Shown: positions 3,029-47,726 of the stretch, in pieces | How the letters are laid out: each line of letters starts with the position of its first letter | How positions within the stretch are numbered: position 1 is the first letter of the stretch | From: a virus | Length of the DNA: 64,000 nucleotides | Reading direction: 5' to 3' (one strand) | IMG/VR virus record: IMGVR_UViG_3300036715_001865 | Location: 96,001-160,000 of that record | The notes under the pieces: generated by a model | What the model saw: only the letters and a program-made list of their open reading frames with translations | Databases searched by the model: none | Told to the model about the DNA's origin: nothing | Translations under genes and position numbers: made by a program

Positions 3029-3244
3029 ATGTCATCATACAATCACAATCAACCAATAAGTGCCACAGTTTGGACAATTACACATGGGTTAACAAGCAAG
3101 TTCCTAGCGATTGATGTTTTGGAATTGGTAAGTGGAGGGATACATAGGAAAATAAAACCAGTATCAACTGAAATTATTGATTTTAATATTGTTGCAGTAC
3201 ATTTTGCAACTCCAATAGCTGGAGTTGCAAGAGTCGTAGCTTAA
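3029..3244 (+). CDS. small virion protein with W-x-I-x-H-x-L motif
   Basis: AAGGA RBS; WTITHGL motif. Confidence 0.5.
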   Translation: MSSYNHNQPISATVWTITHGLTSKFLAIDVLELVSGGIHRKIKPVSTEIIDFNIVAVHFATPIAGVARVVA

Positions 3245-4359
3245 TATTCTGTTTCCCACATAACAACAAGATTAAAACCTAATGATTGTATTAGGTTTTC
3301 TCTTTCTATCGTTTTTTGATATAACTCACCCATTGATTTTCCACTCACCTCATTAATTTCTTCAGGGGCATAAATTAGTGGATTTCCGTGCCAATAATCG
3401 CCATGAAATTCATAAATGGTATTTGTCTCTAAACAATATCCATCTGCTCTAAATCTGGTTCCTGGGATTTTCCATTCAGGTATTAAATCAGCTTCCTGTT
3501 GGTCTAGCCAAAGTTGGCATTTGTATGAACTCCAAAAATGTTGTTTGATTTCTATTTCGTGGTTCTTCAAATACCGCAATATAGTCGTTCCAACTATACC
3601 TAGTTCATCAGCTATCTGTGCAGCTGTTTTATTTTGTGTAATATATTGTTCAAATAACCAACTATAATCTTCTATTAATGGGAGAATATCAACCATATGA
3701 GATTGACTAGCACTACTTGTACCATATTTTTGTAGGTTGGTGGATTTTGTTCTAGTTGAAAAATCGATAGTTTTTGAATAGTGAGTCGCCCCATATTTGG
3801 ATTGTGAGGTATTAACACCTTTGTGTTTACATATATCGTGTTGCAATGCATGTATAGTTCCATACTTATTCAACATGGTATTAATACGTTTTTGGTTTAT
3901 GATAGGGTTTTCAAAACTCAAAGAATTACCGTATTTATTGATCATGGTAATAGTTCGTTTTGACTGTATAGTAGAACTATTAAATGGATAAGCTACTCCC
4001 AAATTCCTCATGTTGGTAGTTGTTACTTTTTTGTGAAATTCGGCAGTTTTGGAGAACGAGTCAACTCCATATCTATCCACACAGGTGTCTTTCTTTTTCT
4101 GTTGTACCTTAATATTACAAGCTGGTTGCCCCCCATATCTAATTAGGTTGGTTTGAATACGTTGCTGCTGTGCACACGTTGGACAACCATTGTTGTTTAA
4201 GTGGTTGCCCGGCTGTTGTGAAAACTGTCCATGAGTTGGACATATTATTATGACTTTGGTGGAATTATTGAGATATACCACCTTGCTATAATCATATTTG
4301 TTATTATGGATGATATTAGCTTTGGTGATAAATTGTTCAATAGTCTGTCTTGGTGGCAT
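3241..4359 (-). mobile_element. free-standing putative homing endonuclease (N-terminal zinc ribbon, YG repeats, HTH, C-terminal PD-(D/E)XK/Vsr-like nuclease)
   Basis: CPTHGQF...GCPTC; repeated KYG/RYG units; ADGYCLETNTIYEFHGDYWHGNP; opposite strand to the upstream structural genes. Confidence 0.7.
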
Positions 4360-5952: not shown

Positions 5953-6882
5953 TTACAAACTGAGCATGGGAACAAATAACTCTATACTTTCTCGTATTTT
6001 TACCAATTGAAACCGTCCAGTAAATTGTAAGATATGGAAGTAAGAGAATTTCTTCTTTGTTTGCTCGGCTGCATCTAATGTAGCATCCATTAGATGCCTA
6101 ATGTCTGGTGGCTGCTTTTCCAAATCTATTAAAATTTGGTTATGTTTGAACATTTGGTTTACAGTAAATTCTTCTTTATCTTGATTTGTCCATTTTTCAG
6201 CCATGAAGTTAATAAATTTATAACCATCTCCATCTAAAGCATCATTGTACACCTCTTTGATTCGAGTTGAACGAACCATAGGATATGCGGACTGTATATT
6301 ATCGGTGCTATCACCTCTAACACACTTATGAAATAAATAATATTCAGCATCATTATCAAAGTTCTCAAGGGTATTTTGAACCTTGTCAGTAATAGGAGAT
6401 ATTAATGTCACATTTGGAAATTTCATCAATTGGGCCAAATCACTATCAGCTGATACTAACACAATATCACTATCTAAATTTCGTTGAATAAACCCAGCCA
6501 ATAAATCATCTGCTTCCAGTTCATCATTAAATAATGTCACAACAGTAGTGTGATTTATAATCAACTCTTCAAATTCAGCCAAATGAGCAATAAATTGTTC
6601 ATATTTAAGCTGTTGACTTGGAGTCATATCTTTTCTTCTGTTGCCCTTATATGGTTTTAAATAAGGGTGGGCGGCTGTATATGTTTTCCTCCAACTAGAC
6701 CTATCAAAAGCCATAACGACTTTTTTTGGTCTATATTGTTTGAAATACTTATTAAGAGTGGTGAGCGCCATATGCATACTCATTCCACTAATAACAGACT
6801 CTTCTTCATTAGAATTAGCATAAAAAGACCGATACAACAAATTACTAATATCCAAACACAAATAATCACACGATTTTGCCAT
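5953..6882 (-). CDS. rnh: 5'-3' exonuclease / T4-type RNase H
   Basis: LDISNL, ELEADDL, SADSDLAQL, GDSTDNI motifs. Confidence 0.9.
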   Translation of the reverse strand: MAKSCDYLCLDISNLLYRSFYANSNEEESVISGMSMHMALTTLNKYFKQYRPKKVVMAFDRSSWRKTYTAAHPYLKPYKGNRRKDMTPSQQLKYEQFIAHLAEFEELIINHTTVVTLFNDELEADDLLAGFIQRNLDSDIVLVSADSDLAQLMKFPNVTLISPITDKVQNTLENFDNDAEYYLFHKCVRGDSTDNIQSAYPMVRSTRIKEVYNDALDGDGYKFINFMAEKWTNQDKEEFTVNQMFKHNQILIDLEKQPPDIRHLMDATLDAAEQTKKKFSYFHILQFTGRFQLVKIRESIELFVPMLSL

Positions 6883-6890
6883 ACTTCCTC

Positions 6891-7313
6891 CTATAGATAG
6901 TCACTTACAGTTTTCTTACTTGCAGTTTCAACAACTCGAGATTCGAATTTATCAACCAAATCTTGATACATTAGTGCAAGCCATTTCTGTACAGCAACAT
7001 CTTCATCCGAAGCTGATATCCCATTTTCTTTTAAATATTGAATAAACGCATCATTCCAATCCAAATTGATTACAATGCCCTTTATTTCATCAATAGATTC
7101 TCCTATAACTTCTACCCACGGATCAGGGCTATTTCGTTTATCGTCATATTTTTGTTGTTTCTCTCTCAGTATTGTTAGCTCTGATGAAGCCTCTTCTAAC
7201 CGAGCCTCCACAAGAGCCCTATCTTCTCGTTCAGCTGTTAGCAAATGCTCTAACTGATCCAATCTACTTTCAACTGATTGTTTTTTCTCTTTTGATTTGT
7301 TGAACCACCACAT
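6891..7313 (-). CDS. conserved phage hypothetical protein with coiled coil
   Basis: PWVEV...LDWNDAFIQYL motif resembles T4-like phage hypotheticals. Confidence 0.6.
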   Translation of the reverse strand: MWWFNKSKEKKQSVESRLDQLEHLLTAEREDRALVEARLEEASSELTILREKQQKYDDKRNSPDPWVEVIGESIDEIKGIVINLDWNDAFIQYLKENGISASDEDVAVQKWLALMYQDLVDKFESRVVETASKKTVSDYL

Positions 7314-7341
7314 AATAATATCCTTTTAATTATGTTTGTTT

Positions 7342-8094
7342 TTAATTTCGTGCCATAACATACACATCAAGTCCATTAACTGTAAATATTAATGTACCTT
7401 TGGCTGTTATAGAACATTTTCCTGTTTGATTTGTTTTAAAAATAGGTAACAATAAATCAATTGGATATTTGTAAGAGAATGATGCAGGGGTATCATCACC
7501 AATTGATTCCATAGTTGTGGCAAAATGATATTCCAAAGTATCCCCATTAATATCTGTGATGTCTAATGAAACACCTGATTTACTTCCATTAAATGATACC
7601 TCATCAGTCTTCATTGCTACTTTTCCTTTAGCTATCATATTGATTGCTTCTGGAGTGATGTTTATTTCGTAGGTACTTACTCCAGCCCTTACTTTAGGTG
7701 CTTTTATAGTCTGTGGACTAGCACACCTATAATCAATGGTAGTATTCCGGCCTTTCATCATTAAAGACTTAACCCACATAGGCGTTTCTGACGCAACTGT
7801 TCCCACTTTTCCAAACCCAATTAAATTGGAATTACCAGTTGTTACTGCTTCAATTGAAAACCCATCTTGAGATTTTGCAAGTTCCAGGCGAGCTATAAAC
7901 ACCTCAATTCTATTAAGTCCTAATGAACCACACGATAGCGGTGGGACACCCACATCTTGATAAAGCACTACGGTTTGTTCGTCGGACATTGCTCTAACTT
8001 TTCCTGGTTCAATAATTATATTGCTTATATTAACCAATTTTGCTGTAGTAATTACAAGCCGTATAAAGGCTATTTCTTCTGCTGTTAATGTCAT
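7342..8094 (-). CDS. probable DNA polymerase sliding clamp (gp45-like)
   Basis: 250 aa with alternating helix/strand pattern, located between polB and rnh; no diagnostic motif. Confidence 0.5.
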   Translation of the reverse strand: MTLTAEEIAFIRLVITTAKLVNISNIIIEPGKVRAMSDEQTVVLYQDVGVPPLSCGSLGLNRIEVFIARLELAKSQDGFSIEAVTTGNSNLIGFGKVGTVASETPMWVKSLMMKGRNTTIDYRCASPQTIKAPKVRAGVSTYEINITPEAINMIAKGKVAMKTDEVSFNGSKSGVSLDITDINGDTLEYHFATTMESIGDDTPASFSYKYPIDLLLPIFKTNQTGKCSITAKGTLIFTVNGLDVYVMARN

Positions 8095-8127
8095 ATTTAA
8101 TCCTTTATCTATGTAACATATATTATA

Positions 8128-8541
8128 CTAGAAAATAAACTCAGATTCAAGCGTTTCTGCCATTTTTGATATGGGGATATATTCCACTATATCATATCCA
8201 TGATTAGTTAACCATTGTGACACCAAATGTCTATGGCAGAATTGATGTGGCAACTCATAACACAAAAGTGTTGCTTCTTCTGTTAATTCATCTACTACTT
8301 GTTGTGGATTTAACTTATGTAATTGGTGATTGTATCGTTCAATATACACCTCCTTTGTTATAATACCTGACTTATACGGAGATACCATGGTATCCCAGCT
8401 AGGAGCTAAATTTGGATACCAATCATACCTCACCCCAAGATTAAACAAATATGTTCTCACTCTAGGGGTCAAACTGCAACTAATTGAGGTTAGTTTAGAT
8501 AGGTGTGTTATATCTGGTCCTTGGTAATAATAGGTATACAT
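8128..8541 (-). CDS. DUF488-like protein
   Basis: LLCYE...FCHRHLVSQWL motif; start reassigned to ATG 8541 behind GGGAG. Confidence 0.7.
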   Translation of the reverse strand: MYTYYYQGPDITHLSKLTSISCSLTPRVRTYLFNLGVRYDWYPNLAPSWDTMVSPYKSGIITKEVYIERYNHQLHKLNPQQVVDELTEEATLLCYELPHQFCHRHLVSQWLTNHGYDIVEYIPISKMAETLESEFIF

Positions 8542-8542
8542 A

Positions 8543-11263
8543 TTAAAACTCCCATTCTTCTTCAAAAACTAAGCTGTCCTTCGATGGAGGACGTTTATCC
8601 ACAGCTTTTAATATGTTTTGCAGTGGATTATCAACCAATTTTTCGACGTGCAATTTTCTATCAATTACAAAATTATCAGTAAACCAATCAGGAACAAATT
8701 CAGCATCAGTTGGTAACGCAATACTTTTAAATCTGCCACAAGGTACTTTCAAATTAAATACTTTGATCTTCATACCGGACATAATCGGAAAACTAACTTT
8801 ATCTCCATATTCAACCAGCATTTGATTATAATGAATTGCTGCGGCAACGTGTCCTGGTAATCTAGTTCTGTAATCTAGTTCAAACTTTTCCGTGTACTCA
8901 ACCACTCCTTTTATGCCTTTTGGTAGACCAATATCCATAATATCAGGTCTGGTTAATAAATCTTGTTTATAGTCAACGATAGAATATGAAATGTCGCTCC
9001 ACTCTTCCCCTTTTAGATATCGTTCAATAAACCTGTTCAACCGTTTAGATACTGCGACGGGCAAAGTTGTTTTCTTGGTATCTAGCCCCATAACCTTACA
9101 TTTGTCGACAGTTTTACCTTCCACGTCCACTAAATGTAATATGTACCGTTTTTTCTCAACAAATATACCTCTATCTGCAACAACTTCTCTACCACATTTC
9201 ACCAATGAGTCAAATTCTGGTTGACACAAAAATGATTTCTGCATAAATTCTTGATAAGAATTATTAACAACGTCAGCTACATAATCAGATGTTGCAATTG
9301 CCTCTGCAACATTGGTGGCATATGTTTTAAAATACGTACTATCAGTATCACCAGATACGATACAATCAGATTGAAACTTTCCGTTAAAAATAGGTCCATC
9401 TAAGGCTGCATCGGGGGAGTGACCTTTCTCTATAGCTACCTTAGTGGTAGCATACATCGGAATTTCAATATCATACTTTCCTTCAAATATTTGATTAACA
9501 GTGCGACATTGGTGTTTTAAAATCATTCGTGAAGTACCTGTGGTGCTTTCACCCATTCTAACATCAAAAAACCTAAAGTGTAAGTTTGCCAACGCTCCAT
9601 ATAGTGAGTTTAACTTGATTTTATATACATATTGCAACCTGTCATAATATGCTACCTTTTCCTCATCGTGAGCTATCTCAGCTTCTTTTTTCAGTTTTTG
9701 GTAGTATTTTCTTTGTGTAAACCAAGTGGTCAACACTGTTGGTATAATTCCAGGAGCATCTTGGTTAAATGCTGTTCCATAACCCGAAATAGCCCACTTC
9801 ATTGCTATAAAATATTCTTTCCACTCTGCTGCAGTTGCTGTTACTGATTCCTGTGTTTTTTCATACACAAAAGTCAATTCAACATCACTTCCTAATTTTA
9901 TTTCAGTATAAGCATCAACAGTTTCAATAAATTGTCCCATTAACTTCTCAGGAGATATATTGATACTTCTAATAGCTGTTGGATATAATGAATTTATATC
10001 AATAGAACCAATCATTTCATGCATGCCTATTTGAGGCAATAGAACTAACGCACCCTCAATTTGTCTATCAATTAAGGGCGTTTTTATGTTGTTTACAACT
10101 CGTTTAATAACATGATGACAATGATTAACAATAGCTAATTCAGCTAATTTCAATGTGCCACTAACATGTTGGAACAATCCACACGATAGGTGATACATTT
10201 GGTTTGCTAATTCAACATATGCCAACTTTTGTTCAAACCCGTGTAATATTTCACTATCTCGAATGTTGTATCGTACAAAAAAAGCAAAATCATTAATATA
10301 CAAAGAGTGCAATGACCCTTCATAGTGAAGTTTAGGCAACAAAGGAACATCATTCTCATCAACTAATACGTCTTCTGAGATTGTTTCTAATTTGTATGAT
10401 GGCTTCTCACTCATTTCATACTTTTTATATAAAAGCATATAATCAGCCAACATTCTACCACTTAACTCTAATTTAATAAAAGTTTGTAGTACAGCGTTTG
10501 GATCTTTTGATTTAAATTTATTGAAATTATCCTCAACTTCTACAAATGTTGTGTCACCACCATCATAAAACGATAAATCTCGCAATCTTGAAACGCCTAA
10601 TACAATTTCGATACGTTTGCCAATAAACGGAAAGTCAAACCGTTCTGAGTTCCAACCACACAATAAATCACTATCCTGTATCTCTGCTATGAACCATTCC
10701 AGTAGTTCTCGTTCATCTTTACAAATGTGGAATACTGTCTCATAAGACTTATCTAAGGGTACAATATCCTCACACGCCTGTCTTAACATCTCTTCAGTCC
10801 AATTAACTCCATCGTTTGGAGGTACAGCCAAAGCAATCATAGTTTGAGTATGTTCGTGGAATATTGACATAGCATTGATTGGAGCATATGGATTTTTTGG
10901 TCCACTAAATCCCTGATCAAGGTTGTAATCTACCTCGATATCAAGAAAAGATACGTGAAGTTTTGGTGCAGGTATTTTATGATAAGTGTTCGATAACACT
11001 CTAATTTCTGTAGGAATATCACTTTCCCACATTTGTACGCCATGAGAGGCGAATTGTTTGCGTTTCTTGTAAAATAAACTTCTATCCCGTCCACAGTCCA
11101 CTTTTGCAACTGAGGTATCGTATATAGTTTTATGTTTTCCATTTGGATCATCAACATAGAAATAATAAGGAGCATTATAATCAACAGTGGTTCTTTCGCC
11201 ATCTGCTCCACGCTCCCACACTCTAACTACATCATCTAAAGTAATTGCTGAAAGGTAACTCAT
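8543..11263 (-). CDS. polB: family B DNA polymerase with 3'-5' exonuclease
   Basis: FLDIEVD, GWNSERFD, DINSLYP, KIKLNSLYG, GDTDS. Confidence 0.97.
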   Translation of the reverse strand: MSYLSAITLDDVVRVWERGADGERTTVDYNAPYYFYVDDPNGKHKTIYDTSVAKVDCGRDRSLFYKKRKQFASHGVQMWESDIPTEIRVLSNTYHKIPAPKLHVSFLDIEVDYNLDQGFSGPKNPYAPINAMSIFHEHTQTMIALAVPPNDGVNWTEEMLRQACEDIVPLDKSYETVFHICKDERELLEWFIAEIQDSDLLCGWNSERFDFPFIGKRIEIVLGVSRLRDLSFYDGGDTTFVEVEDNFNKFKSKDPNAVLQTFIKLELSGRMLADYMLLYKKYEMSEKPSYKLETISEDVLVDENDVPLLPKLHYEGSLHSLYINDFAFFVRYNIRDSEILHGFEQKLAYVELANQMYHLSCGLFQHVSGTLKLAELAIVNHCHHVIKRVVNNIKTPLIDRQIEGALVLLPQIGMHEMIGSIDINSLYPTAIRSINISPEKLMGQFIETVDAYTEIKLGSDVELTFVYEKTQESVTATAAEWKEYFIAMKWAISGYGTAFNQDAPGIIPTVLTTWFTQRKYYQKLKKEAEIAHDEEKVAYYDRLQYVYKIKLNSLYGALANLHFRFFDVRMGESTTGTSRMILKHQCRTVNQIFEGKYDIEIPMYATTKVAIEKGHSPDAALDGPIFNGKFQSDCIVSGDTDSTYFKTYATNVAEAIATSDYVADVVNNSYQEFMQKSFLCQPEFDSLVKCGREVVADRGIFVEKKRYILHLVDVEGKTVDKCKVMGLDTKKTTLPVAVSKRLNRFIERYLKGEEWSDISYSIVDYKQDLLTRPDIMDIGLPKGIKGVVEYTEKFELDYRTRLPGHVAAAIHYNQMLVEYGDKVSFPIMSGMKIKVFNLKVPCGRFKSIALPTDAEFVPDWFTDNFVIDRKLHVEKLVDNPLQNILKAVDKRPPSKDSLVFEEEWEF

Positions 11264-24580: not shown

Positions 24581-25663
24581 ATGGCTACAAAAACAGAAGC
24601 ATTCATCGGCAAGGCGTCAGCTATTCATCAACACAAATATGATTATACATTAGTTGAGTATATTAACAATTCGACTAATGTGATAATTATATGTCCCATC
24701 CACGGAAGATTTACTCAACGTCCAGGAAACCATTTAAGCGGTGCTCAATGTAAGGAGTGCTCAAAGCTCAATAGAGCCGCTACAAATTTAGAAAAATATG
24801 GCCATCCAAATATTGCTCACGGCACAAAGAAAGATAAAATATCAACTACCAATATCGAGCGGTATGGTGTATCACAATCTGCTGCAAGTTCAAATAACAT
24901 CAAAAAACGAAAACAAACATTGTTGGGTAGATATGGGGTAGATAATCCATCTAAAATCTTACAATTTCAAGAAAAACGAAAACAAACCTTTTTAGATAGA
25001 TATGGAGCTGATAACCCATCTAATGTATTGTTGTTTCAAGAAAAACGAAAGCAAACTTTTTTAGATAGATATGGAGTACCAAGCTCATTTAAACGTTTAG
25101 ATAGCATAGAAAAGAGTCGCAACACTTGTATACAACAATACGGAGTGCCACACCACACCCAACGAAATATTAGTCCAACAATTTTAAATAATATATCTGA
25201 TTTTGATTGGTTATATGACCAATATATCACTCAACAAAAATCAGCTACAAAAATAGCAATCGAGCTAGGGGTGACAACAAAAACAATATGCACTTACCTG
25301 AAGAGACAAGAAATAACATTACGAAGAATGGTTAAATTCTCGTGGATGTGCATTGATTGGTTGGATTCTATAATGGACAAAGATAACATATTAATTGTAC
25401 ATTCTCTCAACAGTGGAGAATACAATATACCAAATACCAAACTACATGTGGACGGGTTTTGTGAAGCAACAAATACTGTGTATGAATTTCACGGGGATTA
25501 TTGGCACGGAAATCCAACTAAGTACCACCCTGATAGACTTAATACTACTACAAATTCCACAATGGGTGAGCTATACAAAAAAACCATTGAACGGGAAGAA
25601 AAAATTCGAGAACTTGGATATGAATTGGTGATTATGTGGGAATCTGATTTTAACAACCACTAA
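24581..25663 (+). mobile_element. free-standing putative homing endonuclease, paralogue of 3241-4359
   Basis: CPIHGRF...CKEC; RYGVDNPS repeats; HTH; VDGFCEATNTVYEFHGDYWHGNP. Confidence 0.72.
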
Positions 25664-33805: not shown

Positions 33806-33844
33806 AAAAATATCCATTAATTGATATTTTATTTATCACCCACA

Positions 33845-33870
33845 AACAAAAAACCACCCGAAGGTGGTTT
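33845..33870 (-). terminator. tmRNA terminator
   Basis: AAACCACC-TTCG-GGTGGTTT followed by a T-tract. Confidence 0.85.
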
Positions 33871-34140
33871 ATGTGAAGGTGTTTCTGTTTCCAAGTGTAC
33901 CTCCAATACTCATACCTACTTAGTTGCCTAAGCGGCTAGTGCATAATTTTCTGAATTTGCAGTTATATTTTTTATGCCATTAGATATTACTATCCAGAAG
34001 GTCATCTCTCTAGTTGCCGATCAAACTTATTCTACCCCAATCGATACCATGACATCCCCATAATTAGTTATTTGTGGAGATGGTGGGAGTCGAACCCACG
34101 TCTTGAAGCCTTTAATTTGATAGGAATTACAACCATTCAA
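33845..34140 (-). ncRNA. ssrA: circularly permuted (two-piece) tmRNA, tag ANSENYALAA
   Basis: T-arm GTGGG-TTCGACT-CCCAC and CATCTCC-A (34099-34075) precede GGGGATG (34059-34053); G3:U70 pair; tag ORF 33960-33928. Confidence 0.92.
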
Positions 34141-34146
34141 CTTTTG

Positions 34147-34154
34147 TATTTATA
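34147..34154 (-). promoter_or_regulatory. T4-late-like promoter of the tmRNA
   Basis: Exact TATAAATA just upstream of the acceptor piece. Confidence 0.7.
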
Positions 34155-34503
34155 CTATTCGAGTTTTATGTGCCTTAATATACTCATTTGTGAAATACTT
34201 TACTCTACCATCTACCATTTCACACAAGGTAGTAGGATGTATTCCCGAACCTACTGCAATAGTAAATTGAATATCAACCAATTGCTCATCGATATCATCA
34301 GTGGGCCGAACATAATCCATACCGGATACAAATATCCTATAAGCTTCAGTGGCTAAATTATATGCCAATTGATCTATAGCAATTTTTGTTTGGTTGGCAT
34401 CAATAGCTTGAATGGTACCATCTTTGATAATTTCTGTACACAATTCTTCCCAAGATTGTAACTCTTGATTGCTAATTTTAGTTGGTGTAGATGTATTGTT
34501 CAT
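34150..34503 (-). CDS. hypothetical protein
   Basis: ATGA-type coupling to the upstream gene; clean ORF. Confidence 0.65.
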   Translation of the reverse strand: MNNTSTPTKISNQELQSWEELCTEIIKDGTIQAIDANQTKIAIDQLAYNLATEAYRIFVSGMDYVRPTDDIDEQLVDIQFTIAVGSGIHPTTLCEMVDGRVKYFTNEYIKAHKTRIV

Positions 34504-40319: not shown

Positions 40320-41789
40320 TTAGCGCTTTCTTCTTCTAACACGGTTATTAACTAATGTTCCAGATGAAACTGCTGGATCTCCTGCTAGTTCATTCAAATA
40401 CTCTTCAACTGCTGTGTATCCATTATTGTTAGCATCACTGTTTCTATCACTACTATTATTTGGATTCAAAGAATGTGTTGTTTCCCAATCATCTGGCATT
40501 CCATCATGATCAGTATCAACAGAAGCAGTTCCTACAGCTAATGTGGGCCAATTATTTTGGTCTTGTCCTACAGTACCTGTTCCATTTATAATATCATCCA
40601 TTATACGAGAATCAATAATATCTCTAGTTGGTAATTTTGCTCCTGCACTTGGTAACACATTGGTTAAAACTAAACTTGTAGAATAGGTGGTTACAAATGG
40701 TGTGGTAACTGGTGAAGATAGTAAATTAATACCTGAATTGCCACCATAAATGTTACCTGGATTGAAGTCATTTACTGTTCCAGTTGGATATAGTGGAGAA
40801 TAGTTGCCAGTTATATAAATGCGAGTTTGTGAATCCACATCAAGTATTGTATTGTAACTACCAGCATCACCCAAATCTAATGGATTCTTTTTGTATACGT
40901 TGTTTACAAAATTAGCTTGGGTGGTATTAAAATTGACTGGATAAAGATTGGTAGCCTTTTGCATTCGGATGTTACCCGAATTATATGTTGGGTAATAGTA
41001 AATTACATTATTACGGAAGTCAAAAATACTAGGGTCATCTACACGAGGATTACGTTCTTGGTTGTGAGCAAATACTGTGTGATGAATGGATATAGATCTC
41101 GGATGAACGGTGTCAACACCAATATCACCACCAGCTAAAAATCCCATACTGTGAGAGCCTTTAGAGTGACCTGAAGTTGCTCCAGATGCAATAATACAGT
41201 TTTGAATAGTGACATCACTTACTGAGTCCCAAACTGTTGCATTCTGATCAACAGACCATTGAATAGACAAATGATCCAACACAACATTATAAACTCTGTT
41301 TGGGATATCCACACCCCACATTTCAACACCACTATTATAGTCACATGAGTTTAATCCTTTGGCAATACATGCATCACTACCTGGTCGAATTCTTAAATAT
41401 CGAATTACAACATCATGAGCCCCATCTTGAATATAGAATCCCCAATTTTTGATTTGGATACCATCCCCAGGAGCTGTTTGTCCTGCAATAGTAATATAAC
41501 TATGTGCTGCATTTATGATAATATCATTAGCTAATGATATAGTTCCACCTGTTTTGAATACAACAGTTCTTGCTCCTGTTATACCTTCAACACAGTTTCT
41601 AAGTGAACCAACTCCAGAATCGTCTAAATTGGTTACTTCACATATAACTCCACCTCTTCCTCCAACAGTCTGAGTACCATACCCTTCGGCAGTTGGAAAC
41701 GCTTTTGGAGGAATTGCGGAAGCAGGGGTAATAAAGGAAAATAGCAATAATGCTATTAAGGTTGAAGCAAATAAAGATAGTTTTTGCAT
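40320..41789 (-). CDS. secreted pectate lyase-like beta-helix polysaccharide lyase
   Basis: Signal peptide; AFPTAEGYG..GGRGG, TIAGQTAPG, DHLSIQWSVDQ, RNPR, DTDHDGMPDDWE. Confidence 0.88.
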   Translation of the reverse strand: MQKLSLFASTLIALLLFSFITPASAIPPKAFPTAEGYGTQTVGGRGGVICEVTNLDDSGVGSLRNCVEGITGARTVVFKTGGTISLANDIIINAAHSYITIAGQTAPGDGIQIKNWGFYIQDGAHDVVIRYLRIRPGSDACIAKGLNSCDYNSGVEMWGVDIPNRVYNVVLDHLSIQWSVDQNATVWDSVSDVTIQNCIIASGATSGHSKGSHSMGFLAGGDIGVDTVHPRSISIHHTVFAHNQERNPRVDDPSIFDFRNNVIYYYPTYNSGNIRMQKATNLYPVNFNTTQANFVNNVYKKNPLDLGDAGSYNTILDVDSQTRIYITGNYSPLYPTGTVNDFNPGNIYGGNSGINLLSSPVTTPFVTTYSTSLVLTNVLPSAGAKLPTRDIIDSRIMDDIINGTGTVGQDQNNWPTLAVGTASVDTDHDGMPDDWETTHSLNPNNSSDRNSDANNNGYTAVEEYLNELAGDPAVSSGTLVNNRVRRRKR

Positions 41790-41995: not shown

Positions 41996-42889
41996 ATGCA
42001 GCAACAGTTTTATGTATATGAATTAATTGACCCAAGAACAAATATTCCGTTTTATGTGGGAAAGGGATGTGGCAATCGAATACACCAACACATATTAGAA
42101 GCTAACAAACCAAGAGATAAACAAGTTAATAAGTTTAAATGTGCAGTTATTAACAATATACTGAGCAACCATAGAGTGGTGGTTGAATCAATCATACAGG
42201 ATAAATTATCAGAACAACAAGCATTTGAGTTAGAAATAGAATTAATAGCTAAATACGGAAAAAGGTGGGATGGCACTGGATCATTAACCAACTTTCACGA
42301 TGGTGGAATAGGAGGAACTGGATATCCAAAAGAAATAGAACAATATAGCATAACAGGATCATTTATAAAATCCCACTCATCGATTACATTAGCAGCTATG
42401 GAGCATAATATTCATAAAAGCTCAATATGTGCGGCACTTAATGGGAGAACCTTGTTGGCTGGTGGATATAGATGGGGATATGTTGGAGATATATTAACAC
42501 CATATACCAACATGAAATATACTCCTGTATCTTGTTATAATATGGATGGAACCATTAGATGCAGCTTTAATAGTATTAAATCTGCAGCAAAAAGTTGTAA
42601 TATTATATACACCAATATTATTGATGCTATAGCTGGAAGGCACCATACTGCAGGTGGATATAGATGGGCGTACCTTGGGGAAATTCCAAATTCCATCCCA
42701 GATGGCTATAATATTCCAGGTACTAGAAAGTTTGCATGTTATGATAATAACATGCAACTAATAAAAGTGTATGATAATCTGGCAGATGCTGTATTAGAAA
42801 CTGGCGCAGTATCCTCTGGTATAGTAGATAGGTGCGCCGGCCGTGTTAAATATAAATCAGGGGGATTTTATTGGAAATATTATTCATAA
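41996..42889 (+). mobile_element. GIY-YIG (LEM-3-like) endonuclease with NUMOD1 repeats
   Basis: YVYELIDPRTNIPFYVGKG; three AGGY/GGF-(R/Y)W repeats; CATAAATA at 41957-41964. Confidence 0.88.
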
Positions 42890-43461
42890 CTCTCCAAAAT
42901 AGACCGTTCCTTGTCCACATCACGGTGGATAGCACTATCTACTGTGAATTTATCTGGATATCTATGTCTAAGTTTTTCAAATCCCATATCTAATGTTTCA
43001 TTTAAGGATTTACCAAGTGCATCATGGCCTATTAAGATATACCACATAACATCAAACATCTCCTCCCTAACATTAACCTGATCGATATCAGTTCCATTTT
43101 CAACGGCTTTTACAATTGCCTCAATTAATTCAGTACTTTCAGTAGCAATACCAATTAAAGCATGAAACAATCTAGGGTCAATTGGAAGATCCACAACATT
43201 AGAAGTATTGGTAGTACTTGCTAATGCAGTATGTGTATTAATAACAGTTCCTAATTGAGAATTCCAACCGTTATTATCAATTGGTTTTCCATAAAACACA
43301 TTTTTCTTAATTGCATCTAACATATTACCAGCAGCAATAAACATTTGCATTACCTGTAATAATTTATCGTAGTCAGTATGAACTACTTCGAGGTGACTTT
43401 CAGTGCGAATAGCATCTTTGATATATTGAGCCAAATCCGTGGTATCTTGTGAATTATTCAT
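42880..43461 (-). CDS. MazG-like nucleotide pyrophosphohydrolase
   Basis: ATESTELIEAI...VREEMFDVMWY all-alpha motif. Confidence 0.8.
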   Translation of the reverse strand: MNNSQDTTDLAQYIKDAIRTESHLEVVHTDYDKLLQVMQMFIAAGNMLDAIKKNVFYGKPIDNNGWNSQLGTVINTHTALASTTNTSNVVDLPIDPRLFHALIGIATESTELIEAIVKAVENGTDIDQVNVREEMFDVMWYILIGHDALGKSLNETLDMGFEKLRHRYPDKFTVDSAIHRDVDKERSILESYE

Positions 43462-43520: not shown

Positions 43521-43617
43521 CGTAATGGTGTTTTTCAAAATACTTCAAACGTTAATATGATTATAGTATAATAAATGTTTACAAAATAAATAAACTCACA
43601 ATACCACTGGAGATTAT

Positions 43618-44361
43618 ATGAAAACACATTACCGTACTATATGGCTATCAGATATACACTTGGGAACGAGAGATTGTCAAGCTGATGCACTTTTAAATTT
43701 TCTAAAAGATACTGAATCAGATAATCTTATTTTGGTTGGCGATATTATTGACTTTTGGGCAATTAAGAGAACTCCATACTGGCCAACATCTCACAACACA
43801 ATTATACAAAAAGTTCTTAAAAAAGTAAGACACGGAACTAAAGTAATTTTCATCGCTGGAAATCATGACGAGTCCCTTAGAGAGCACGTAGGGTTATCAT
43901 TTGGTGGAGTGGAAATACATGAAAATTATACTCATACCCTCACAGATGGTAGAACAATATTTTGTGTACATGGTGACATTTATGATGTAATTACCAGATA
44001 CCATAGATGGTTGGCTATTTTAGGTGATGTTGGATACACTGGACTACTGTGGTTAAATCGAATTCAAAACAAAATCAGAGCTTCTATCGGGTTTGGACAT
44101 TGGTCTTTATCAGCATACGTTAAATCTCGAGTTAAGGACGCTGTTAGTTTTATTAGTGATTATGAAGCTAATGTGGTGAAAGAGGCTAAGCAATTAGGTG
44201 TAACAGGTGTGCTATGTGGACACATCCACCACGCAGAAATGCGAACAATTGATGGGGTTCTTTATTTAAATACAGGAGACTGGGTGGAAAGTTGCACTGC
44301 TATTGTGGAACATTTAGATGGTAGTTTGGAATTAATTAAATGGATGGAACATAACAGATGA
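43618..44361 (+). CDS. PlcP-like metallophosphoesterase (usually annotated LpxH-like)
   Basis: SDIHLG, GDIIDFW, AGNHDE, HGD, CGHIHH, NTGDWVESCTA. Confidence 0.85.
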   Translation: MKTHYRTIWLSDIHLGTRDCQADALLNFLKDTESDNLILVGDIIDFWAIKRTPYWPTSHNTIIQKVLKKVRHGTKVIFIAGNHDESLREHVGLSFGGVEIHENYTHTLTDGRTIFCVHGDIYDVITRYHRWLAILGDVGYTGLLWLNRIQNKIRASIGFGHWSLSAYVKSRVKDAVSFISDYEANVVKEAKQLGVTGVLCGHIHHAEMRTIDGVLYLNTGDWVESCTAIVEHLDGSLELIKWMEHNR

Positions 44362-44405
44362 AGATTTTCATGGCGTTCAAGGTACAGGAAACGGTCATAT
44401 CACAG
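44358..44405 (+). pseudogene. orphan 5' end of the glycosyltransferase gene
   Basis: MKIF-(1-nt deletion)-GVQGTGNGHIT, coupled by ATGA overlap to the upstream stop. Confidence 0.8.
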
Positions 44406-44449
44406 TACTCCATCATAAATACTAATACCAAAACAATTATGGTAATATT

Positions 44450-45601
44450 ATGGATGATAAATGGACCATGGAATGGTTTATTGGTATGGGGGTTATCTTG
44501 GTTGCTGTAGGTGGTAGCTTACGAATAGTAAAAAGTAAAATTTCTGATGAAATTAGGAATGATATTATAAGTGCTACCCCAAAATGTAGAGATAATTTAT
44601 CAGAGCGGATATATTGGTTGCTAAATGATATAACGGATTATCCTTACTGTGTTGGATGTGGTGTTTATATTCAGCCCATTTTTTACAAGTTAAAAAATGG
44701 ATACAAAAATTCCAGATTTTGTTCTCCGGCTTGTTCAAGCAGGTCTGATGATATAAAACAAACTAAAAAATATAATTTTAAAGAGATACATGGTGTGTAC
44801 CACCACATGCAGCTATCTTCAACGAAAAGTAAGATTAAGCAAACAAATTTAGATAGATATGGTGTGGAAAATACATTTCAATCTGATGAAATTAAAGATA
44901 AAATTAAACAAAATAGATTAGAACAAACTGGATATGAATATGCTTCACAAAATCCAGAAATTAGGAAAAAAATACAACAAACAAATTTAGATAGATATGG
45001 AGTGGATAATCCACGGAAATCTAATGTAACCGTAGATAAAATAAAACAGACCAACCAAGAACGATATGGATATGATTCGTTCTTAATTTCTCCAGAGGGA
45101 CAACAACAAAGATTACAAACCACTTTAGAAAAATATGGGGTGGAATATGCTTTACAAAGCCCCGAAATACAACAAAATAAAAACCAAACCTGTTTAGCTA
45201 AGTATGGAGTAAACCATCCTATGCAAACTACTACTGTTTTTGAAAAATGTGGTAAGTACAAGAATAAACAATTGAATCTACCATCTGGTAAATCAATTCG
45301 ATACCAAGGATACGAAAACGTGGCAATCACGCATTTATTATTAGAGGTAGGAGAAGAAGATATTAAAAACCAACGAGGAGAAGTTCCTTCTATTTGGTAT
45401 ATAATAGATGACACAACACATAGGTATTATCCAGATATTTATATTCCCAGTAAGAATTTAATAGTGGAAGTAAAATCAACCTGGACATATAAAAAACATT
45501 TTGATATTAACCAATTAAAGAAACAAACTTGTATTGAACAAGGATATAATTTTGAATTTTGGATATGTTCAAATAAGAAAATTTTAGAAATAATACGATA
45601 A
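44450..45601 (+). mobile_element. putative homing endonuclease (Zn finger, YG repeats, PD-(D/E)XK)
   Basis: CVGC...CSPAC; RYGVEN repeats; YYPDIYIPSKNLIVEVKSTWT; CATAAATA at 44414-44421. Confidence 0.72.
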
Positions 45602-45612
45602 GGGATATATTT

Positions 45613-46653
45613 ATGAAGATATGGTACGCTGTAAACGCCACGGGGAATGGACATATCACACGTGGAAGAGTGATGGCAAAAGAATTAAAATCAGCTGGCA
45701 TTGAGGTTGATTTTATGTTTTCAGGTAGACCACCAGATAAACTTTTTGACATGGAAGTGTTTGGAAACTACCAAACAAGGAAAGGGGTAACTTTTAATAT
45801 ACACAAGGGGAAAGTTGATTCATACAAAACCATCATAGAAATGGATGTATCCACTATGTGGAAAGATATAGCTAATTTACAACTAAGTTCGTATGATCTG
45901 GTTATTAGTGATTACGAGCCTGTAACAGCGTGGGCAGCAAAACAACAAGAAATACCTGTTATAGGTATTGGCCACCAATATGCATTTAATTATGACATTC
46001 CAATCAAGGGCGGTAATTGTATTACTAAAGGGATAATGAAGAATTTTGCACCAGTTACAACTGGGGTTGGTTTACATTGGCACCACTTTAACCAACCAAT
46101 ACTTCCTCCCATAATCGACCTACCACATCTTCCAGAATATACAACAAAAACTATAATTGTGTATTTGCCCTTTGAAGATCAACAAGAGGTAATTCAGATG
46201 TTATCAAAGATCAGAGGATTTGAATTTCATGTGTATACATCTGAAAATATAAAATCTACATATGATCACATTAAGCATTATACACCTTCGCGTGATGGAT
46301 TTCAAAATGATTTGTTACACAGTGTTGGAGTTATTTGCAATGCAGGATTTGAATTAGTAAGTGAGGCGTTACAACTTGGAAAGAAAATACTAGTAAAGCC
46401 TGTACAAGCTCAAATGGAACAGTTATCTAATGCAGAAGCACTGACACAATTACAATATGGATATTCAATGATATGGTTAGATAGGGAGATGGTTAAGTAT
46501 TGGTTATATGATACCAAAGCTACTATAATATCATATCCAAATACTGCTAAAATGTTGGTTGAAAAAATGCAAAGCGGTGGATTAGATTTATCCACCGCTG
46601 AAATTATTAAATTTTGGGAAAATGTTACCGTCTCGGACCTTTCTTGCTATTAA
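45613..46653 (+). CDS. MJ1255/VC2487-family glycosyltransferase (GT-B)
   Basis: MKIWYAVNATGNGHITR, VISDYEP, CNAGFEL.SEAL, QMEQLSNA. Confidence 0.85.
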   Translation: MKIWYAVNATGNGHITRGRVMAKELKSAGIEVDFMFSGRPPDKLFDMEVFGNYQTRKGVTFNIHKGKVDSYKTIIEMDVSTMWKDIANLQLSSYDLVISDYEPVTAWAAKQQEIPVIGIGHQYAFNYDIPIKGGNCITKGIMKNFAPVTTGVGLHWHHFNQPILPPIIDLPHLPEYTTKTIIVYLPFEDQQEVIQMLSKIRGFEFHVYTSENIKSTYDHIKHYTPSRDGFQNDLLHSVGVICNAGFELVSEALQLGKKILVKPVQAQMEQLSNAEALTQLQYGYSMIWLDREMVKYWLYDTKATIISYPNTAKMLVEKMQSGGLDLSTAEIIKFWENVTVSDLSCY

Positions 46654-47132: not shown

Positions 47133-47726
47133 CTAATTTAATTGGTTATGGGCCAACAAGCGGCTATCCTTTCCAACTTTCGTCATCAAAAAATCCATTT
47201 GATCTTGTAATATATTTCTATTTGTTAAAATTAAATGTTCATAAATTGATGGAACATATGGTAAATACAACAATTTCATACCTGCTTCTTCAGGTGTGTT
47301 ATCATCTTTACGTCTATTGCATCCAGCACACGCAGTAACAACATTCATCCAGACATTTTTCCCTTGTCTTGAACTTGGTAAAATATGATCTCTGGTTAGT
47401 TTTGCTGTGGTAAATTCAATTCCACAATATGCACATAAATTATGATCTCGTCTAAACAATGTTTTGTTTGTCAAAGACGGAGTCCGAAACACGTGTTTTG
47501 ACCCAATTTCACCTTTAATAGCAATAATGGTATTTAATTCCATTGTTGATTGGGTCTGAGTAATACGGTTAGTACCACCGTGGATAACATACAATTCATC
47601 ACTTGGTGTCCAGGCAATTAAATTTTTTGCTTGATAGTATGCTGCCGTCTGAAAATCAATCCAACGCGATGGTGTTCCAGACATATCTAACTGGAGGATT
47701 AATGGGTGTTGTTGAGTATGTTCCAT
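47133..47726 (-). CDS. HNH endonuclease (McrA-like)
   Basis: CAYCG, TRDHILP, NVVTACAGCN. Confidence 0.88.
   Translation of the reverse strand: MEHTQQHPLILQLDMSGTPSRWIDFQTAAYYQAKNLIAWTPSDELYVIHGGTNRITQTQSTMELNTIIAIKGEIGSKHVFRTPSLTNKTLFRRDHNLCAYCGIEFTTAKLTRDHILPSSRQGKNVWMNVVTACAGCNRRKDDNTPEEAGMKLLYLPYVPSIYEHLILTNRNILQDQMDFLMTKVGKDSRLLAHNQLN

Follow-up and report, generated by a model that had tools for sequence, protein, structure and literature searches.

The closest described relatives of the genes considered here are the bacterial PlcP-Agt lipid-renovation genes. Published operons include plcP-agt, plcP-btaAB and plcP with other glycosyltransferases (PMC4796936, PMC8528852), as well as plcP-agt-dagK of Burkholderia cenocepacia (BCAL2364-2366; PMC13691135), and members of the PlcP-Agt pathway are known from S. 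meliloti (SMc00171), Phaeobacter sp. MED193 (MED193_17359), SAR11 HTCC7211 (PB7211_983/960), P. aeruginosa (PA3219/PA3218) and Methylosinus trichosporium OB3b (PMC4796936, PMC8528852, PMC9239053). In the literature that we searched, PlcP is described in bacteria only, phage copies appear solely as 'lpxH' in gene lists and surveys, and no auxiliary function described for phages is lipid renovation. In this study, we analysed a 64,000-nucleotide stretch of virus DNA (hereafter the window), which corresponds to bases 96001-160000 of the 190,391-base IMG/VR virus record IMGVR_UViG_3300036715_001865 (CheckV completeness approximately 54%). A putative PlcP-type phosphoesterase gene and a glycosyltransferase gene in this window probably form a phage-borne module that turns host phospholipid into phosphorus-free glycolipid during infection.

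The locus consists of a 156-nucleotide (nt) divergent intergenic region followed by three plus-strand open reading frames (ORFs) of 247, 383 and 346 amino acids. The two lipid genes had been picked out as a pair by an original prediction made from the letters of the DNA, and both were found present and intact where it had placed them:

43618-44361, plus strand: phosphoesterase assigned to the PlcP family (247 amino acids, intact, GGAG ribosome-binding site, Pfam Metallophos)
44358-44404, plus strand: vestigial glycosyltransferase 5′ end, its ATG overlapping the phosphoesterase stop codon (ATGA), frameshifted
44450-45601, plus strand: free-standing DUF7487 gene, homing-endonuclease-like (383 amino acids, Pfam PF24308, PHROG)
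45613-46653, plus strand: MJ1255/VC2487-family GT-B glycosyltransferase (346 amino acids, intact, own AAGGGA ribosome-binding site)

The pair shares with the bacterial PlcP-Agt pathway its basic order, in which an LpxH-like metallophosphoesterase gene is followed by a glycosyltransferase gene, here one that originally overlapped it. However, the phage pair has a GT-B enzyme of the MJ1255/VC2487 family instead of a GT4 Agt, carries no Pho box, and is split by a homing endonuclease gene. The closest bacterial pairings of both phage genes are operons in Nitrosomonas and Burkholderiales, whose logic is that of the B. cenocepacia operon, although the phage pair has no adjoining dagK and the glycosyltransferase families differ. 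Likewise, PlcP of Bacteroidetes has been listed with an 'uncharacterised glycosyltransferase' (PMC4796936, Table S2), and the Cytophaga loci that we examined pair PlcP with the MJ1255-type family, but there the two genes are divergent and lie beside porin O/P and pstSC. LpxH has the same fold and metal centre as the phosphoesterase and provides its nearest solved structures, but it is only about 20-26% identical, falls in a separate clade and has a different gene neighbourhood. The classic phosphate auxiliary genes of marine T4-like phages are pstS and phoH. A PlcP homologue abuts pstS in the Pelagibacter phage Mosig, whereas no such phosphate gene was found in the present record.

Several comparisons support the assignment of the phosphoesterase to the PlcP family. 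The family is marked by Mn-dependent hydrolysis of PE, PG or PC to diacylglycerol, and the phage protein is predicted to be such a phospholipase C. The translation contains SDIHLG, WPTSHNTIIQKVLKKVRHGT, WSLSAYVKSRVKDAVSFI and NTGDWVESCTA, which had been quoted originally as a PlcP pattern running along the protein, and in an alignment of 22 family sequences all four strings occupy columns with little or no variation. The metal-binding motifs DxH, GD, GNHD/E, HGD and GHxH are all intact, residues D12, H14, D42, N82, H83, H118, H202 and H204 are invariant in the same alignment, and the Pfam Metallophos model scores 53 bits (cut-off 21.5). The LpxH equivalog models, by comparison, reach 41.3 bits for NF003743 (cut-off 134) and 35.7 bits for TIGR01854 (cut-off 190), and an LpxH model search of the phage's own genome gave the phosphoesterase 40.6 bits, again below the cut-off. 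The protein aligns with E. coli LpxH at 26% identity across 117 residues, all in the N-terminal half. A phylogeny against LpxH had been suggested as a check, and in a FastTree phylogeny of 170 sequences the two true LpxH rows are set apart from all others with 100% local support, leaving the phage protein outside the LpxH cluster. Moreover, Methylomonas fluvii encodes a homologue 55% identical to the phage phosphoesterase and, in another gene, a protein with 48% identity to E. coli LpxH. Because the protein scores below the LpxH cut-offs, stands apart in the tree and has a homologue that coexists with a true LpxH, we assign it to PlcP rather than to LpxH.

The wider distribution of homologues includes genera that have been published as PlcP carriers. 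More than 8000 database proteins match the phosphoesterase, the nearest being 73-77% identical; homologues in Alpha-, Beta- and Gammaproteobacteria are 52-59% identical, a Thalassospira gene that precedes a GT4 is 53% identical, and a Cytophaga gene 46%. The PlcP carriers of PMC4796936 Table S2 include Thalassospira (with Agt) and Cytophaga hutchinsonii (with the glycosyltransferase of no stated class mentioned above). The published criterion for PlcP is a BLASTP E value below 1e-40 to MED193_17359, and characterised members are 46-51% identical to one another. In the family of a Methylobacterium genome, 99 of 121 genomes have one strong match to the phosphoesterase. Two genomes of that family carry a second phosphoesterase paralogue, 35-38% identical (loci L181 and L182).

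Structure prediction places the phosphoesterase near LpxH. The AlphaFold model has a core with a predicted local distance difference test (pLDDT) score above 85 and a helical insert at residues 124-193, with low confidence at 124-180. Its top 24 matches in PDB are all LpxH, at 17-23% identity, and are followed by unrelated phosphoesterases that match five orders of magnitude more weakly; no PlcP structure turned up among these matches. A PDB search with the sequence returned H. influenzae LpxH as its sole match (E 5e-6). On the evidence of the model, the phosphoesterase belongs to the lipid-handling, LpxH-like branch of the fold, yet to a separate family.

The second gene encodes a member of the MJ1255/VC2487 family, scoring 232 bits against NCBIfam TIGR00661 (cut-off 195.9) and 119 bits against Pfam PF13528 (Glyco_trans_1_3; cut-off 25). 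Its closest relatives are Methylobacter and Methylococcaceae proteins that carry the same family label, at 57-60% identity, and residues T10, G11, N12, G13 and H14 of the N-terminal TGNGH loop are invariant in the family alignment. The description of this partner as a GT-B glycosyltransferase was borne out by a model with the two Rossmann domains of that fold (pLDDT 89.5) and by GT-B matches with Z scores of 17-23, among them YojK (22.8), the UGT51 sterol glucosyltransferase (21.3), MurG (19.4) and MGD1 (17.6). YojK and UGT51 are GT1 enzymes for lipophilic acceptors, and MGD1 is a plant galactolipid synthase, so the modelled fold fits a lipid acceptor without showing which one. The analogy with PlcP-Agt that the original prediction had drawn thus holds in part: the linkage to diacylglycerol metabolism stands, while the glycosyltransferase is not an Agt homologue. 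We considered an assignment to Agt (GT4) and rejected it, since a Pfam search of the protein found no GT4 domain (Glyco_transf_4 or Glycos_transf_1) and a BLASTP comparison with the Agt-type gene from a locus of Rhodospirillales (L157) gave an E value of 0.045.

Comparative genomics supports a tie between both gene families and diacylglycerol metabolism. We collected 87 bacterial and 83 viral loci and used Pfam-typed representatives of the adjacent genes as queries against them; the bacterial set comprised homologues at 43-59% identity to the phage phosphoesterase, and these sit in PlcP-Agt-type operons. A glycosyltransferase or BtaA gene adjoins the homologue in 63 of the bacterial and 75 of the viral loci. 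Among the bacterial loci, a GT4 Agt-type gene lies downstream on the same strand in 50 (median distance 66 nt), a DUF3419 gene is found in 8, an MJ1255-type glycosyltransferase gene in 8 and a DAGK_cat lipid kinase gene in 12, and several loci also have pstS/pstC, porin O/P or PhoU genes. We take DUF3419 to be the BtaA family (Pfam assigns it no function). The viral loci have a small GT2 gene in 40 cases, starting a median of 20 nt past the phosphoesterase gene, and a GT4 gene in 35. These arrangements match the published plcP operons, and the Thalassospira and Cytophaga loci agree with PMC4796936 Table S2.

The MJ1255-type family recurs beside PlcP in bacteria that are not closely allied. In Nitrosomonas, a same-strand plcP-patatin-glycosyltransferase-dagK cluster encodes a glycosyltransferase 52-54% identical to the phage enzyme. 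(The four-gene clusters lie at 5971-9935 of locus L101 and 5971-10112 of locus L104, both from Nitrosomonas metagenome-assembled genomes; 'patatin' denotes a patatin-like phospholipase and the kinase is DAGK_cat.) A Burkholderiales genome has plcP-glycosyltransferase-dagK with an MJ1255-type enzyme, and in six Cytophagaceae genomes an MJ1255-type gene is divergent from plcP-porinO/P-pstS-pstC; the Cytophaga enzymes are 29-31% identical to the phage glycosyltransferase. In M. fluvii (locus L176, 7375-8936), a gene for a PAP2 lipid phosphatase overlaps an MJ1255-type glycosyltransferase gene by ATGA, far from plcP. The plcP gene of that species adjoins a PhoU-domain gene and a gene for a large secreted Exo_endo_phos protein. 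Because the family is repeatedly linked to PlcP and to dagK-type genes, its acceptor is predicted, from gene linkage, to be diacylglycerol.

Viruses show the same association. No homologue of the glycosyltransferase was found among 50,697 phage records, nor did a scan of viral contigs with the single protein give a match, but an alignment-based scan yielded eight contigs encoding the MJ1255-type family, and a PlcP homologue is adjacent in seven of them; in six, the gap separating the two genes is about 8 nt. PlcP homologues are far more widespread: at least 528 viral contig stretches have one, the usual partner being a GT2 or GT4. They also occur in two cultured phages, S-SRM01 and Mosig, the latter having its homologue back to back with pstS. 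Bacterial contamination of IMG/VR was considered as the source of these matches, but it cannot explain all of them, as many have ribonucleotide reductase (RNR) genes on either side or come from contigs 160-480 kb long, and two cultured phages carry the gene. In 11 viral contigs, a PlcP-GT2 pair lies between the genes for the large and small RNR subunits, and hence inside a nucleotide-supply cluster. It had been proposed that the pair is uncharacterised in phages; we found no paper on it, although such pairs are clearly not unique among viruses. Two features set this window apart: the partner is of MJ1255 type and is carried by a XacN1-like jumbo phage, and an endonuclease gene has replaced the 5′ end of the glycosyltransferase gene.

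The history of this second feature can be read from the junction of the genes. The ATG at 44358 overlaps the TGA stop codon of the phosphoesterase gene (44359-44361). It begins a 47-nt remnant of the 5′ end of a glycosyltransferase gene. This vestige has a 1-nt deletion, the missing base following ATGAAGAT, and when read through the deletion it gives MK(I)FHGVQGTGNGHIT. It matches the N-terminus of the bacterial family consensus at 15 of 16 residues and the present phage glycosyltransferase at 11 of 16, and its BLOSUM62 score of 44 compares with 25 for the next-best site in all six frames of the window. Hence, the proposal of an original translational coupling of the phosphoesterase and glycosyltransferase genes by ATGA is right. 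The similarity ends directly after the conserved GNGHIT motif, beyond which 45 nt lead up to the DUF7487 gene, itself followed by a ribosome-binding site and an entire new glycosyltransferase 5′ end. Over codons 4-16, the old and new 5′ ends are identical at only 24 of 39 nucleotides, with many silent differences, and the new end was therefore derived from a diverged allele and not from a recent local duplication. This arrangement indicates that a DUF7487 cassette entered after the GNGHIT codons and brought a substitute for codons 1-16, so that the gene was invaded rather than split.

Free-standing homing endonucleases of T4-like phages are known to invade or split genes, as with mobE in nrdA of Aeromonas phage Aeh1. 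The present case resembles these in that a multi-copy endonuclease gene sits at a conserved motif (GNGHIT) of a metabolic gene, but here the cassette has a complete substitute 5′ end, and the old end survives as a frameshifted stub. The DUF7487 gene itself scores 217 bits against Pfam PF24308 (cut-off 27) and matches PHROG homing endonuclease families, and at least six copies of such genes are present in the phage record. Contigs from two other sediment samples are identical, letter for letter, to the stub and the endonuclease gene. Among short contigs from the sequencing runs of other samples, no insert-free form joining the phosphoesterase gene to the glycosyltransferase gene was seen. The joints in these contigs had short sides and low likeness, which led us to take them as homologues from other organisms.

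These observations suggest the following sequence of events. The phosphoesterase, judging from its family, would cleave host glycerophospholipids to diacylglycerol and a phosphorylated head group. The glycosyltransferase, judging from the linkage of its gene, would then move a sugar from a nucleotide-sugar onto diacylglycerol, which would form a phosphorus-free glycolipid and prevent the build-up of diacylglycerol. The two ATGA-coupled genes were later invaded by the DUF7487 cassette, just after codon 16 of the glycosyltransferase gene, and both enzymes have remained intact because the cassette brought a replacement 5′ end. The phage would probably benefit from membrane phosphorus freed for nucleotide and DNA synthesis, which is the least secure step of the proposal. 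Taken as a whole, PlcP plus MJ1255-type lipid renovation by genes that were once coupled and then invaded by an endonuclease, with a phosphorus benefit, is the explanation that we favor, and we hold it with moderate confidence.

A number of points weigh against this explanation. The case for PlcP orthology rests on synteny and on agreement, at the level of genera, with a published table. The glycosyltransferase model resembles UGT/GT1 enzymes, sterol glucosyltransferase, MurG and MGD1, a mix that does not point to diacylglycerol in particular as the acceptor, and our literature search found no study that tested any member of the MJ1255/VC2487 (TIGR00661) family. The enzyme PlcP releases a phospho-head group and not free phosphate, so another phosphatase would have to act, and the genes nearby include no evident candidate. 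Insertion of the endonuclease gene may also have uncoupled the expression of the two lipid genes. With regard to regulation, a Pho box (CTGTCATNNNNCTGTCAT, allowing 3 mismatches) is absent near the phosphoesterase gene, as had been noted originally, although the host's own Pho box may differ; the window holds 5 Pho-box matches against 8.5 expected. The pstS and phoH families were not found in the 190-kb record, which represents about half a genome. The sigma-70-like −10 element that had been predicted at 43567-43572 does exist as TATAAT, with TTCAAA 17 nt upstream (10 of 12 consensus matches), but promoter-like sites in the region number 21, versus 21.5 ± 4.3 in shuffled sequences, which is the level expected by chance in AT-rich DNA. 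Pho-box control belongs to the bacterial system and does not characterise the PlcP enzyme family.

The alternative that survives best is that the two enzymes carry out the same reactions for a benefit other than phosphorus, such as exclusion of other phages, a change of receptor or permeability, stabilization of the membrane of a long-lived infected cell or removal of the substrate of phospholipase-type defense effectors of the host. We regard this as possible, though unlikely. The negative searches for a Pho box and, in the record, for pstS and phoH fit it, as does a promoter candidate that resembles host sigma-70 sites and would be constitutive or early. PlcP-dependent remodelling has also been reported to alter susceptibility to antibiotics, grazers and phage attachment (PMC8528852, PMC9457565, PMC9938194). 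Nevertheless, the surroundings of homologues are those of phosphate starvation (Cytophaga has pstS, pstC and porin O/P there, Methylomonas has PhoU and Mosig has pstS), a genome of about 350 kb imposes a heavy phosphorus demand, and neighbouring genes supply nucleotides (MazG, ribose-phosphate pyrophosphokinase and RNR). The suggestions of the original prediction that the module mines phosphate or excludes superinfecting phages gained no direct support from the regulatory and gene-content searches above; from the bacterial system and phage Mosig, we infer by analogy that phosphate harvesting would be a reasonable role.

It is more doubtful that the glycosyltransferase acts on some other lipophilic acceptor, for example a polyprenyl-linked sugar, a lipid A or lipopolysaccharide precursor, a sterol- or hopanoid-like lipid, or a small molecule, with the phosphoesterase perhaps supplying or trimming a different substrate. 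The best fold matches, YojK and UGT51, are GT1 enzymes whose substrates are small lipophilic molecules, whereas MurG has a lower Z score and the diacylglycerol enzyme MGD1 a lower one still, and the Methylomonas gene adjoins a PAP2 phosphatase gene instead of plcP. The PAP2 family also acts on undecaprenyl pyrophosphate and lipid A. Such an acceptor is difficult to reconcile with the tight and repeated linkage to PlcP and a diacylglycerol-kinase-type gene in unrelated bacteria, and to PlcP in nearly all of the viral contigs that encode the family. Moreover, the slot beside PlcP elsewhere holds proven or likely users of diacylglycerol, namely Agt, BtaA and a GT2 with a weaker match to the GT21 family (PMC4796936).

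A more speculative proposal keeps diacylglycerol as the acceptor and holds that the module is not mainly for phosphorus. A glycolipid membrane would resist phospholipase-type abortive-infection effectors or exclude competing phages, and the MJ1255/VC2487 family would be a third, unrecognised class of diacylglycerol glycosyltransferases that both phages and bacteria have recruited. We consider this improbable in its entirety.

It is very improbable that the endonuclease insertion broke expression of the operon and left the genes as decaying relics that have no role. A selfish element does lie between the genes, and a frameshifted gene fragment has been left behind, but neither ORF is truncated, all residues that are invariant in the families are conserved, each gene has its own ribosome-binding site, the base composition matches that of the phage, and the arrangement recurs unchanged in contigs from other samples. 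Finally, the phosphoesterase could be read as a genuine LpxH (UDP-2,3-diacylglucosamine diphosphatase) with which the phage raises or changes lipid A production in its host. Database labels and virome surveys take this for granted, source annotations name the homologues LpxH, and the nearest solved structures are LpxH. This reading is close to refuted by scores far under both equivalog cut-offs, the fully supported separate clade, the presence of a homologue and a real LpxH in one genome, the abundance of homologues in Alphaproteobacteria and synteny with diacylglycerol-using enzymes instead of lpx genes.

The record that carries the lipid renovation genes has the hallmarks of a large phage, including a T4-type DNA polymerase, both topoisomerase II subunits, an NAD-dependent ligase, RNR and a DnaB-type helicase. 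Its DNA polymerase shares 37-42% identity with the enzymes of the jumbo phages Xoo-sp13, XacN1, CM1/RAS14 and RsoM2USA. By this measure the source is a jumbo phage, a distant relative of the XacN1-like jumbo phages of Xanthomonas, Stenotrophomonas and Ralstonia, with a full genome size of about 350 kb. The GC content of the phosphoesterase gene is 36.4% and that of the glycosyltransferase gene 35.4%, versus a window mean of 35.4%; both lipid genes are resident in the phage, their base composition equalling that of the phage. A phage tmRNA gene at 33837-34164 on the minus strand encodes the tag peptide ANSENYALAA, which is of proteobacterial type and may serve as a pointer to the host, and a tRNA-Met gene is located at 54113-54188. 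The remaining features near the lipid genes, and the other DUF7487 paralogues, are as follows:

43544-43572, plus strand: sigma-70-like promoter candidate TTCAAA-17 nt-TATAAT, 5′ of the phosphoesterase gene in the divergent intergenic region
43520 to 43492, minus strand: perfect sigma-70 consensus TTGACA-17-TATAAT (12 of 12), facing the MazG-like gene
42880-43461, minus strand: MazG-like gene, the neighbour across the divergent intergenic region
41996-42889: GIY-YIG endonuclease gene, flanking the lipid genes
47133-47726: HNH endonuclease gene, flanking the lipid genes
49099-50094, minus strand: ribose-phosphate pyrophosphokinase gene, identified by reading the ORF translation
3241-4359, minus strand: DUF7487 paralogue
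24581-25663, plus strand: DUF7487 paralogue
Around 32874, 35280, 39635 and 77287 of the record: further DUF7487 paralogues

With predicted nucleases of the DUF7487, GIY-YIG and HNH types, this phage genome is heavily colonised by selfish elements. A peptide deformylase gene is convergent with the glycosyltransferase gene, their 3′ ends overlapping by 29 nt (46625-46653), and a strong terminator-like hairpin lies on the minus strand at 46599-46573, inside the glycosyltransferase coding region. At 40320-41789 on the minus strand, a 489-amino-acid protein with a signal-peptide-like N-terminus and no Pfam match resembles a PHROG pectate lyase family (E 2e-41), and it may be a polysaccharide depolymerase.

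If the proposed lipid renovation is correct, large phages would rewrite the lipids of their hosts and free membrane phosphorus, which is one of the larger phosphorus stores of bacteria. This would be a new viral auxiliary function, with a bearing on phosphorus cycling in mats, sediments and lakes. The assignment to PlcP also corrects a systematic mislabel, as hundreds of viral contigs, along with Mosig and S-SRM01, carry a gene that has been filed as the lipid A gene lpxH. Moreover, the recurrent pairing with PlcP provides a testable function for the MJ1255/VC2487 glycosyltransferase family. Lastly, the endonuclease gene that brought its own replacement 5′ end exemplifies how a selfish element can invade a gene without destroying it.

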